A stretch of DNA of 62,882 nt, the filler included, from an uncultured Methanosarcinales archaeon (GTDB taxonomy: Archaea; Nanobdellota; Nanobdellia; Woesearchaeales; UBA12501): NCBI GenBank assembly GCA_964397315.1. It is 6 parts of 6 records of this genome, joined end to end, with 100 filler letters (N's around TTAATTAATTAA, not from the genome) between each part and the next. Parts side by side here need not be neighbours in the genome. Positions count along the whole stretch, not along the records: positions 1 to 11,911 come from CAYNHV010000033.1; 5 more parts are not named here. One strand, 5' to 3'. Each line of letters starts with the position of its first letter. The stretch's first letter is position 1. The position numbers were made by a program. This document shows, piece by piece, positions 9,001 to 12,000 of this stretch.

Positions 9001-12000
9001 AAGGGCCCTGTCCTGTTTGCTCTTTCTCAATACCTTTAGTTTTCCTATCGGAAACTTTTCATTGTTCCTGTATACTACAGGCGTTTTCTCCCTCGTTGTC
9101 CTGAGGTATGATATCCCCTTATGGCCTGCCATCTCCTTCACGCAGTTCTCTGCTGAGACCGCATCGCAGGGGTAGAGTATGACTGAGTCAGGTATTCCCA
9201 TGAGCATGTTAATGTCCTCAAGCCCCATTTGCGAGGGCCCGTCCTCGCCAATGCTCACTCCTGCGTGGCTTCCGACAAGCTTTATGTCCGCCTCAGAGTA
9301 CCTTGCCATTCTTATGAAATCATACGCCCTTGTGAGGAAGGCGCCGAATGTGGCTGCGAAAGGCCTGAACCCGCCTGCTGAAAGCCCCATTGCCATGCCT
9401 GTCATGTTCTGCTCTGCTATGAAAGACTCAAAACTTCTTTCAGGGAATGCCCTGAAGAATGCCTCTGTCCTTGTTGAGTTCCTCACATCCCCGTCCAGCA
9501 CGACAATGTCCCTGTTCTTTGCCCCCAGCCTGACAAGGGCGTTGCCGAAAGCGCTTCTTGTCGCGATCATCTCTCCTTTCCTGTATCTTGTGGGCTGGAA
9601 AGAGCCCTTCCTCCTGGATGGCCTGTTGTACCTTACTGCTGATTTCAGCGTTGTTGAGGGCTCTCCTATCTCGCTTACTGCCTTTTCCATCTCCTCATTG
9701 CTTAGCGGCCTGCCGTGCCAGCCGTTCCTGTCCTCTGCAAAAGGTATTCCCTTTCCCTTTACTGTCCTGGCTATTATGGCGCACGGCTTTCTGCTCCTGC
9801 CTGCTGCTTCCATTGCCTTGAGAATCTCCCTCATGTCATGGCCGTTGATTATCACTGCCTTCCAGCCGAAGGATTCAAGCCTTGACTTGTATTCCTTCAG
9901 GCAGCGGCCCTCCAGGGTCTGCTGTGACTGGCCCAGCCTGTTGGCATCAACAATAGCGCAAAGGCCGCCTGTATTGTAGTATGATGCTATGTTTGCCGCC
10001 TCCCAGACAGAGCCCTCGGCGCATTCGCCGTCTCCGAGAAGAACATAAACATTTCCCTTATCCCCCTTCAGCCTTTTTGCAAGCGCCATGCCCAGGCCTG
10101 CAGAGAGGCCCTGCCCCAGGCTTCCTGTTGCTATCTTCACCATCCTCATCCTTGGTGTCGGGTGGCCCTCAAGAACACTGTCAAGCTTCCTGAGCCTCAT
10201 GAGATCCTTTCCTGGTATGATTCCTGCCTCTGCATACGCTGCCCAGAGTATGGGGGCTGCATGGCCTTTTGAGAGTATGAACTCATCATTCCTTTTCATG
10301 ACTGAGAAGAACAATGCAGACATTATCTCCGCGCATGACATGCATGATGTTGGATGGCCTGATCCAGCTGCTGTGGTCGCTCTTATTGAATGAACCCTCA
10401 GCTTGTCTGCCATCAGCTTCAGGCCCTTTAGATCACCCTTTTTTGAGGCCATAACACCGTATCTGGAATATTACTTTATAAAACTTATGGAATAAGGCAG
10501 GGCAATCTTTTTATATCACTCCAGGGAACAAAATATTATGACACTGCATTCAATAAAAGAAAGGATACCTCCTGAATTGTATTCAGTGCTTGACAAGAAC
10601 GGAATATCAGAGCTGAGGCCCGCCCAGAGAAAGGCAATCAAGGCAGGCCTGCTTGAAGGAAAGAACATTCTCGTCTGCACGCCCACAGCTTCGGGCAAGA
10701 CGCTGATTGCAGAGCTTGCTCTTGTGTCATCAATACTCAAGAGAAAGGGAAAGTGCATATACATAGTCCCTCTAAAGTCGCTTGCTTCTGAGAAGTACAA
10801 TGAGTTCATGGAGAAATATGGGAATCTTTTCAGGATAGCAATATCAATAGGGGACATTGACTCATCAGACCCCTTTCTGAGAGATTATGACCTGGTGATA
10901 TCAACTTCTGAGAAAGTGGACTCCCTCATAAGGCACAGGGCTGACTGGCTCAGGGAGGTGGGTGTTGTTGTCATAGACGAGATCCATCTTCTGAATGATC
11001 CCGGCAGGGGACCCACTCTTGAGATACTCATAACACTGCTCAGGCAGATTCTCAGGAATGTCCAGATACTCGGGCTCAGCGCCACAATAGGCAACCCTGG
11101 CGAGCTTGCAGAATGGCTCGGCGCGGGGCTTGTTCAGGACAAGTGGAGGCCTGTTGAGCTCAGAAGGGGAACCTATCTTGACGGCTCTGTTGAGTTCACC
11201 CAGGGAGATTAATATTCTTCCTTGCCTTCTCCACATCAAAGGCTTTCTCCTTTGGAAGCTCAAAATCCTTCTTGTCCACATCAGCCTTTATGCAGGTGGC
11301 ATTGGCTGGAGAGATCTTGTCAATCAGCTCCTGCTCTGAGAATACGCCTCTTGTCATCTGCTTTTCAGAGAGCTTCATGTCAGGCAAGTAGTCAAACTTG
11401 AGCCAGGTATTATACATCTTTGAGAACCTGTAGAGAGTGCTGTTTGTTATGAAAGCTGTTGTGTTGCTGTCAGACCAGAGGATGTCCTGCCGTATGATAC
11501 CCTGCCTGAACTTCAGTGACATGGGCCCGTAGGATGTCATTATGGTGCAGACATAGCCGTCCTTGTCCTCCAGCGCAGCGCTCAAAGGAATTGTTTTCTG
11601 CCCCTTCTGGATGCTTTCCCTGACCTGAGTTATGCTCTCTTCAATTGATGTGCCCTTGATTCTTTCGTCAGATGATACATCCTCAACAAGCTTTTTCTCA
11701 GGGCTGAAGGATGCCTTTATGCTGAGAACAGAGAAATACACAACAAGGCCAATAATGAGAACTCCTGCTCCTGCAAGGATATACCTCTTTTTCATAAGGC
11801 GCTTGTATCCTGAAGAAGTTTATAAAGCTTTTGATGGGGTCAACGCGCCTGAGGAACTTTATTGAAAATGGCGCAAAGCCATTTTCCAGTGGGTTTAAAG
11901 AAAATCCCGACNNNNNNNNNNNNNNNNNNNNNNNNNNNNNNNNNNNNNNNNNNNNTTAATTAATTAANNNNNNNNNNNNNNNNNNNNNNNNNNNNNNNNN

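Follow-up and report, generated by a model that had tools for sequence, protein, structure and literature searches.

In the archaeal genome analyzed here (G000), two unlinked genes encode the DNA helicase Hel308, and it is probable that these genes specify two subunits of one Hel308 helicase, the assembly of which we infer. The conserved repair helicase Hel308/HELQ ordinarily has its motor in a single chain, and we found no published report of a split Hel308. The gene for the N-terminal piece, termed here the N-half, lies in the window (the whole stretch of DNA that was analyzed, 62,882 nucleotides), which is a string of contigs in which only positions 1-11911 belong to the contig carrying this gene. 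The gene for the remainder, the C-half, is on a separate contig (Table 1).

Table 1. Features of the two Hel308 genes and of the surroundings of the N-half gene; positions count along the window except for the C-half, which is given by contig.
Feature	Position	Strand	Description
N-half of Hel308	10538..11212	+	ORF with ATG start, 224 aa, intact
Content of the N-half	10538..11212	+	RecA1 (Q motif, I, Ia, Ib, II DEIH, III SAT) and first RecA2 beta-hairpin
C-terminal tail of the N-half, residues 203-224	11144..11209	+	Aligns to PfuHjm residues ~198-218
TATA-like box	10510..10516	+	28 nt upstream of the N-half start codon; putative own promoter (leaderless or short leader); consensus match only
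Convergent 199-aa ORF	11196..11795	-	Without Pfam match; overlaps the final 17 nt of the N-half gene and marks its true 3' boundary
C-half of Hel308	G000 (source genome) C1:146355-147944	-	529 aa

Gene content and the site of the cut

The N-half gene proved to be exactly as the survey's finding had described it when its open reading frame was checked, and the identification of both pieces as Hel308 orthologues was upheld by their top models, their relatives in the PDB and a tree of the concatenated halves. In the N-half, Pfam DEAD was matched at residues 27-185 (E 4.8e-33), the top NCBIfam models were the Hel308 equivalogs, matched solely at model positions 3-219 of 739, and the closest solved relatives were Hjm/Hel308 (E 2.4e-65), with Hjm residues 7-218 covered. 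The closest solved relatives of the C-half were likewise Hjm/Hel308 (E 9.2e-91); it carries the Pfam domains Helicase_C, HTH_61, Helicase_dom4_arc and HHH_5, comprises the remainder of RecA2, the winged helix, the ratchet and the HhH domain, and covered Hel308 model positions of about 223-714 in the profile search. In terms of model positions, no part of the Hel308 sequence was lost and none was duplicated. The five-domain architecture (RecA1, RecA2, winged helix, ratchet/domain 4 and HhH/domain 5) is complete, but over two polypeptides, and every SF2 motif (Q, I, Ia, Ib, II DExH, III, IV, IVa, V and VI) is present, divided between the two chains. The N-half is 52-65% identical to proteins of 687-757 aa from other orders. 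Neither half alone (N-half, 288.9 bits; C-half, 464.4 bits) nor their sum (753 bits) reached the curated equivalog cut-off of NF002654 (887 bits; that of NF040935 is 1200 bits); the single halves fall below the cut-off because the gene is split, and Hel308 models were still the top matches for both.

When 48 N-halves, 29 C-halves and 15 full-length proteins were aligned, the junction fell in the same loop in all of the half-length sequences: each N-half ends 0-12 residues past the same strand, and each C-half begins just before the next conserved element. The split had previously been placed between the two RecA domains, and while the ATPase core is indeed divided, the location required revision. 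Domain 2 of PfuHjm begins at residue 198 and the N-half aligns through residue 218, which places the cut some 20 residues into RecA2, past the first beta-hairpin of that domain. The C-terminal tail of the N-half structurally belongs to RecA2, and we propose it as the tether to the C-half. In the fold predicted for the N-half alone, the tail forms a beta-hairpin (E210-214 and E217-221), and W203, R204, P205 and L208 were invariant in 47 sequences. Since the break is inside RecA2 and follows its first beta-hairpin, the chains are probably held together by strand insertion.

There is no C-terminal remnant downstream of the N-half gene because the convergent ORF overlaps its end, and contigs from two further runs of the same study (X2 and X3) bridged the N-half stop codon into this ORF with zero differences. 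Across relatives, the commonest neighbor of the N-half was a convergent FtsY-type gene (17 of 49 loci) and that of the C-half a convergent PRPP-synthetase-type gene (11 of 33 loci), both without a functional link to the helicase; neither type was found beside full-length Hel308 genes, for which the flanks searched were short.

Distribution, age and maintenance of the split

Within the family, the N-half stands alone in all 16 other genomes, and the total of 17 hits in 17 genomes, with frames of 84-270 aa, reproduces the survey's count; the two shortest frames are at contig ends. In the order sample, which comprised one genome from each of 80 other families, the N-half was identified in 73 genomes (frames of 197-335 aa) and the C-half in 74, with both halves present in 69, the N-half alone in four, the C-half alone in five and neither in two. 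No single-frame Hel308 was found in the family's 16 other genomes or in the order sample of 80, and the claim of an old fission, fixed throughout the order, was borne out in this larger sample. In the class sample, 13 of 14 genomes from the same order were matched, every frame being short, and 47 of the 56 orthologues from other orders were single frames of at least 687 aa, in agreement with the earlier statement that sister orders carry one frame. Short frames in sister orders were considered as independent splits, a reading that was rejected: six were cut by contig ends, one had a single in-frame stop, one was a closed 259-aa frame 160 nt from a contig end, and one was a closed 394-aa frame with RecA1 and RecA2 only. 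Frames of 643-664 aa in relatives (~35% identity) were also rejected as full-length Hel308, as they have a DSHCT domain and belong to a different Ski2-like paralogue.

That the halves are unlinked, as had been reported, was also evident in the five genomes with both on one contig, in which they were separated by 29, 37, 92, 275 and 332 kb and were always on opposite strands; the gaps of 37 and 332 kb match the 38 and 333 kb given before, and the genome given with 170 kb lay outside the sample. Quick trees were calculated for the N-half alone and for the concatenated halves. In the latter, all 24 of the 24 split forms fell on one side of a branch (SH-aLRT 94), an unsplit protein of another order was their sister (support 95), and the branches of split forms were no longer than those of unsplit ones; the N-half-only tree was compatible with one origin. 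The joint tree needs only one fission, which points to a single old cut. The likely origin would be one ancient rearrangement in the ancestor of the order that severed the gene in a surface loop of RecA2. This rearrangement may have been an inversion with one breakpoint within the gene, and the pieces would since then have been transcribed independently, each from a putative promoter of its own and with a separate start codon.

The Walker A GKT, DExH, SAT and Q motifs were invariant in 48 of 48 N-halves, as were motif VI Q..GR.GR and FHH.GL in 29 of 29 C-halves. Within the genus, the dN/dS of the N-half was 0.10-0.14 and that of the C-half 0.11-0.18, values that are rough given that dS was near saturation (1.0-1.8). 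The start codons of the halves are at equivalent positions, and a TATA-like hexamer was present 22-45 nt upstream in 27 of the 47 genes for the N-half and in 19 of the 28 for the C-half, versus 63 of 1500 random windows. Judged by the intact ATPase motifs, the low dN/dS and the TATA-like boxes of their own, both halves appear to be still in use. A frame that is split or truncated in a MAG is often an artefact, and contig ends do cut several of the short frames of sister orders, so one might suspect that the two pieces are what is left of a broken gene, or an artefact of assembly or gene calling, and have no remaining helicase function. We give this reading almost no credence, as the identical junction recurs in the 48 N-halves and 29 C-halves from independent assemblies, contigs from three runs are in agreement over the stop codon, and the invariant motifs and low dN/dS oppose it. 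In addition, 3879 clusters of proteins in a public database, 123-392 aa in length, were matched at E <= 1e-30, and among the 120 of these clusters that were listed, 118 were 219-230 aa and the other two were 235 and 274 aa.

Predicted complex and function of the two halves

The complex model of the N-half with the C-half scored 0.83 in three of three runs, versus 0.00 for the best of three controls, with at least 90% of contacts shared between runs and a partner pLDDT of at least 87. When the tool was calibrated, this mark was attained by 116 of 157 solved complexes and by 2 of 215 mismatched pairs, counts that are only a rough guide here because our own alignments were used. In the model, the beta-hairpin of the N-half inserts into the C-half, with residues 205-221 contacting C-half residues 170-182, and the lowest expected error was for N-half residues 209-213 paired with C-half residues 173-179. 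The model also reproduces the interfaces of the single-chain enzyme, in which the P-loop meets motif VI and RecA1 contacts the winged helix and the ratchet. It may be that the complex passed owing to memory of solved single-chain Hel308 structures, in which case the result would reflect likeness rather than binding. The expectation that the ATPase site needs both chains was sustained: the RecA1 motifs are in the N-half, motifs IV-VI are in the C-half, and the predicted site lies between the chains.

Most likely, the halves reassemble into one working enzyme. The 224-aa N-half would dock on the 529-aa C-half after translation, the former supplying RecA1 with Walker A/B and motifs Ia, Ib and III, and the latter the rest of RecA2 (motifs IV-VI), the winged helix, the ratchet and the HhH domain. 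The terminal beta-hairpin of the N-half would complete the RecA2 sheet and its RecA1 face would meet motif VI and the winged-helix and ratchet domains of the C-half, and such docking would restore the ATP site, composed from both chains, and the ring that encircles single-stranded DNA. The pair would be expected to act like an ordinary single-chain Hel308, as a 3'-5' DNA translocase/helicase in repair.

A single-chain Hel308 might instead be regenerated if the halves were joined covalently after transcription or translation, by RNA trans-splicing or a split intein. The split DNA polymerase of N. equitans carries a split intein, and an ordinary intein within motif V of the C-half in one relative would be in keeping with such joining. 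Also in its favor, tRNA halves are joined in trans in N. equitans, according to PMC3491384. However, we judge covalent joining to be very improbable, based on the halves being flush with the full-length sequence in the alignment, with no extra junction sequence and no room for intein fragments, on the finding of no intein domain in either half of G000 with Pfam, and on the presence of a separate start codon, a stop codon and a TATA-like box for each half. A conserved RNA element was not noticed at the junction either, though no search aimed at one was made.

We also considered it possible, albeit unlikely, that the halves have partly separate jobs, the C-half alone being an ATP-independent DNA-binding/annealing protein and the N-half an optional translocase add-on or the servant of another partner. 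Five genomes have the C-half but no N-half that was found even by a whole-family-model search at E 1e-8 (G160, rated 100% complete in 20 contigs; G069, 98%; G053, 97%; G035, 96%; and G064, 82%), and the N-half absences are slightly more than genome incompleteness alone predicts. Moreover, a 2026 HELQ/Hel308 review attributes DNA annealing to HhH domain 5 under the control of motif IVa in RecA2, both of which map to the C-half. Conversely, the C-halves of N-half-less genomes retain motifs IV-VI (four genomes checked), of which V and VI are meaningful only beside a RecA1 ATP site; all N-half motifs are kept in every one of the 48 sequences, most families have both halves and most gaps are explicable by MAG incompleteness, and no other protein with RecA2 alone was seen that could partner the N-half. 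A switchable enzyme, in which the C-half is an annealing factor that insertion of the N-half hairpin converts into an ATP-driven translocase, seems to us similarly doubtful. If it were true, the subunit ratio would set the balance of annealing and unwinding, and the genomes with only a C-half would be lineages keeping the annealing arm.

With two subunits of one Hel308 helicase as the preferred reading, a species-rich archaeal order would long have run Hel308 with its two subunits encoded separately and its ATP site between the chains. Such a natural two-chain SF2 motor would open the roles of the RecA lobes to study by mixing, titrating and mutating the subunits separately, and the model suggests that a beta-hairpin can act as a tether when a cut leaves it on the 'wrong' side. 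Thousands of database entries named only 'DEAD/DEAH box helicase' or 'helicase' are Hel308 N-halves, and surveys demanding a full-length match will wrongly score the order as lacking Hel308. The split is also a clean genomic marker for the order and a likely case of gene fission through rearrangement among small-genome archaea beyond the hyperthermophilic Nanoarchaeales.

Comparison with known split and single-chain enzymes

The survey's finding came with the reservation that the split helicase NEQ003/NEQ409 of Nanoarchaeota might itself be Hel308. This has been settled in favor of Lhr: Table 1 of Podar et al. 2013 (PMC3655853) gives NEQ003/NEQ409 (Nst1 172/239) as 'Large helicase-related protein', and PRK13767, which is of the Lhr type, is split in a relative. 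In that relative (G106, same class, 0.5 Mb in a single contig), the pieces cover positions 5-610 and 612-870 and there is no Hel308, and in G122 (same class) they cover positions 18-410 and 416-865; the cut sites differ between the two genomes, and those splits are therefore younger and independent. The N-half scored merely 65.6 bits against PRK13767 (NF010338), below the cut-off, and G000 has an intact Lhr gene as a separate 878-aa frame on contig C13 (1207.9 bits, NF010338). The Lhr split resembles that of Hel308 in that two genes far apart encode an SF2 DNA helicase and that the small-genome archaea concerned belong to the same class, but Lhr is cut after the whole motor or after RecA2 and its motor stays in one chain, unlike Hel308 here.

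The reverse gyrase of N. equitans, which in its natural form is divided between two polypeptide chains (Capp et al. 2010, cited by PMC8185306), is also a DNA enzyme with an SF2 helicase module made as two polypeptides from a split gene. Its cut, however, is between the helicase and topoisomerase domains, leaving the motor undivided, and it is known from Nanoarchaeales and is not, like the Hel308 split, fixed throughout a large order. Other archaeal splits include that of RNA polymerase subunit B, listed for Nanoarchaeota in Table 1 of PMC3655853, those of DPH1/2, listed for Woesearchaeota (PMC6349945), and that of transketolase (PMC11237513). Like the Hel308 split, these are old, fixed fissions with vertical inheritance and both parts under selection, but none is of a helicase motor. 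Single-chain Hel308/Hjm (PDB 2ZJ2, 2VA8 and 2P6R) is the best match for both halves and has the same five domains and all of the helicase motifs. In contrast to it, the Hel308 described here is encoded by two unlinked genes and cut inside RecA2, and its ATP site would therefore be formed between two polypeptides.

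Hel308 split over two genes on separate contigs

The survey's finding of a 224-residue, RecA1-type ORF on contig C33 (window positions 1-11911 only) and of a 529-residue remainder with RecA2, winged helix, ratchet and HhH regions on contig C1 was confirmed in this metagenome-assembled genome (61 contigs, 1.47 Mb, 93% complete). Residues 27-185 of the shorter product, hereafter the N-half, were assigned to the Pfam DEAD domain (E 4.8e-33), and its top NCBIfam models were four Hel308 equivalogs, each matched over approximately the first 220 positions only; NF002654 scored 288.9 bits over positions 3-219 of 739, and NF040935 Hel308 gave an E of 6.9e-67. 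The longer product, the C-half, was located by a whole-genome search with NF002654, and its Pfam domains were Helicase_C, HTH_61 (winged helix), Helicase_dom4_arc (ratchet) and HHH_5.

Features of the Hel308 loci and adjoining sequence (window positions unless a contig is named)
Feature	Position	Strand	Description
Transketolase	8668-10452	-	594 aa
Hel308 N-half ORF	10538-11212	+	224 aa, ATG start, TAA stop
Convergent ORF	11196-11795	-	199 aa, overlaps last 17 nt of N-half gene
34-nt element	11859-11892		internal hairpin, end of contig C33
Hel308 C-half ORF	C1:146355-147944	-	529 aa, NF002654 positions 223-714

No Hel308-like sequence follows the N-half gene because the convergent ORF overlaps its end, and in X2 and X3, two other runs from that study, contigs covering 10630-11499 and 10817-11448, respectively, bridge the N-half stop codon into the convergent gene with zero differences. 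Upstream of the C-half gene, whose neighbours are PHP-domain genes, an N-half remnant was absent. The remaining SF2 matches in the genome were to a frame of DEAD-box size and to an Lhr-type gene, which is intact (frame of 878 aa, scoring 1207.9 bits against PRK13767). A Ski2-like paralogue of 615-664 aa was identified in eight genomes of the family, with a 202-aa fragment in a ninth (loci L022-L030, e.g. L023:85-2013 and L027:1402-3393), and was not found in the present genome with the N-half and the Hel308 model as queries; the two paralogues scanned had DEAD, Helicase_C and DSHCT domains and ~35% identity to the N-half.

The gene divergent from the N-half gene encodes transketolase as a single protein, in which the N, pyrimidine-binding and C domains are all three present. 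According to passages in PMC11237513, 441 archaeal assemblies have transketolase as a split pair, the fused form being limited to a few DPANN and Thorarchaeota; a fused transketolase thus adjoins the split helicase here. The 34-nt element has 12 copies in the genome, 8 within ~100 nt of contig ends and 4 inside contigs C3, C8 and C9, with no CRISPR-like array arrangement among the 12. Its depth in run X1 was ~260 versus 8 for the flanks, and the sequences preceding it differ, which suggests a dispersed repeat at which the assembly breaks.

Distribution and origin of the split

The split is real, old and order-wide. Within the family the N-half was present in all 17 genomes, in frames of 84-270 aa of which the two shortest are at contig ends, which reproduces the earlier count, and the C-half was present in 16 of the 17. 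When one genome was sampled for each of 80 other families of the order, the N-half was identified in 73 (frames of 197-335 aa) and the C-half in 74 (mostly ~470-620 aa); 69 genomes had both, 4 the N-half only, 5 the C-half only and 2 neither, and no single frame in these 80 genomes held both halves. A class sample of 120 other genomes (at least 80% complete) gave matches in 13 of 14 genomes of the same order, all in short frames (221-304 aa), and in 57 genomes of other orders, one match being Lhr-like and 56 being true orthologues. Forty-seven of these 56 were in frames of at least 687 aa (45 of 687-757 aa and two of ~1240 aa), in agreement with the earlier claim of a split across the order versus a single frame in a sister order. 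Of the nine short frames from other orders, six were cut by contig ends and one, in G188, was closed at 259 aa with a contig end 160 nt away; the remaining two, in G169 and G183, are described below. In a public protein collection there were 3879 clusters of 123-392 aa at E <= 1e-30; among the 120 clusters listed, 118 were of 219-230 aa and the other two of 235 and 274 aa, and those listed were named only "DEAD/DEAH box helicase" or "helicase" and were mostly from Candidatus Woesearchaeota or Nanoarchaeota.

Several individual frames departed from these forms. Outside the order, G169 (L100, G169:C7) had one in-frame stop between Hel308 pieces of 569 and 154 aa, and G183 (L099, G183:C4) had a closed 394-aa frame of RecA1 and RecA2 only, with the rest of Hel308 not found within the 4.5 kb fetched. 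In the C-half frames of G088 (1056 aa, L138:1193-4360) and G095 (1024 aa, L139:1566-4637), motif V was interrupted by ~510 aa inserted between C-half residues ~125 and 126; the Pfam scan, which covered G088 only, identified the G088 insert as an intein that carries a LAGLIDADG endonuclease (Intein_splicing, LAGLIDADG_3). The C-half frame of G072 (L130:2269-4575) is 769 aa long and also takes in a Methyltransf_30 domain (residues 655-768), which reflects either a gene fusion or the loss of a stop codon.

The phylogenies point to one splitting event followed by vertical inheritance. In a quick tree of concatenated halves from 24 genomes with 15 full-length proteins, all split forms fell on one side of a branch (SH-aLRT 94), the unsplit protein of G181, from another order, was sister to them (95), and the family and genus of the present genome were recovered. 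A quick tree of the N-part only (63 rows) placed all 48 split forms and G181 in one clade (96), which is compatible with a single origin. Both halves were on one contig in five genomes, 29-332 kb apart and on opposite strands every time, these being related genomes and hence not independent observations. An inversion with one breakpoint within the Hel308 gene would leave the halves distant and on opposite strands.

Cut site, selection and predicted assembly

In an alignment of the junction (15 full-length proteins, 48 N-halves and 29 C-halves), all N-halves end 0-12 residues past the same short strand, which follows an invariant W-R-P-V motif, and all C-halves begin a few residues ahead of the next conserved element, so that relative to the full-length proteins nothing is lost and nothing duplicated. 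Start codons are placed equivalently, and the proteins measure 219-244 aa for the N-halves and 510-554 aa for the C-halves. The N-half corresponds to residues 7-218 of P. furiosus Hjm and the C-half to 228-711. Domain 1 of the Hjm structure is described in passages of PMC2636818 as residues 1-197 and domain 2 as 198-399, and the N-half therefore holds approximately the first 20 residues of RecA2; the earlier proposal of a two-gene split stands, but not its exact boundary between the two RecA domains. Folded alone (pLDDT 89.6), the N-half has a C-terminal beta-hairpin with strands 210-214 and 217-221.

Both pieces are under selection. Core residues of motifs Q, I, Ia, Ib, II and III were invariant in 48/48 N-halves, as were those of motifs IVa, V and VI in 29/29 C-halves. 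Within the genus, the N-half had a dN/dS of 0.10-0.14 and the C-half one of 0.11-0.18, at dS of 1.0-1.8, near saturation, and in the concatenated quick tree the split-form branches were not longer than the unsplit ones. A TATA-like hexamer (consensus match only) was located 22-45 nt upstream of the start in 27/47 N-half genes and 19/28 C-half genes, compared with 63/1500 random windows from the same loci.

Missing halves were followed up with a whole family model at E 1e-8, with G070 and G074 set aside. C-half fragments were present in G018 and G078, and the C-half of G053 was in two pieces, both at contig ends. At this threshold the N-half was absent from G035, G053, G069, G064 and G160, the last being from the class sample and rated 100% complete in 20 contigs, and the C-half from G026 and G040. 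N-half absences in high-quality genomes were somewhat commoner than predicted from 2-4% incompleteness. Motifs IV, IVa, V and VI are retained in the C-halves of G160, G069, G035 and G064, as is the strand pairing with the hairpin; this argues for, rather than proves, an N-half partner that is present and was not assembled.

Complex prediction from our own alignments (47 N-half and 28 C-half sequences) gave a score of 0.83 in each of three runs, versus 0.00 for the best of three controls, with at least 90% contact agreement and partner pLDDT of at least 87. Among solved complexes 116 of 157 reached such a mark, and among mismatched pairs 2 of 215, a calibration that is rough here given the use of our own alignments. 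In the modelled interface the entire N-half tail (205-221) is placed against C-half residues 170-182 (lowest-error pairs N 209-213 with C 173-179), the P-loop against motif VI, and N-half residues 162-166 against the winged helix. Because the modelled assembly has the architecture of single-chain Hel308, the result may be memory of solved structures; the model shows likeness to Hel308, not binding. A beta-hairpin donated by the N-half would partly hold two subunits together, and the most likely reading, which we consider quite probable, is a two-subunit Hel308, joined partly by this hairpin across the cut, that would assemble and be active.

Comparison with known split genes

Split genes are well known in DPANN, among them reverse gyrase, tRNA synthetases and DPH1/2 (passages in PMC6349945). 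Lhr-type genes (PRK13767) were split in G106 (model positions 610/612; G106:C1:886-2679 with 356596-357366) and G122 (410/416; G122:C1:556128-557252 with 136556-137746), both of them small genomes in a single contig, from other families of the class, in which Hel308 is absent. In these, unlike the split Hel308, the RecA1-RecA2 motor is kept in one chain, and the two different cut sites match the published "different site" note for Nanoarchaeota. The precedent is therefore a different family from Hel308, with different and younger cuts, and the suggestion that the NEQ003/409-type split might be Hel308 was not upheld, that type being of the Lhr family and reproduced in G106 and G122.

Full-text literature searches brought up no mention of a split Hel308, and neither did the searched passages of the 2024 Ski2-like phylogenomics, 2021 Lhr and 2021 DPANN comparative papers, the 2026 Nanobdellota preprint and the 2026 HELQ/Hel308 review; the word "helicase" was absent from those of the 2024 archaeal fusion/fission survey. 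Supplementary tables of these papers might list such proteins. The value of the split Hel308 lies in a probable natural two-chain SF2 motor, a correction to annotation and a marker for the order.
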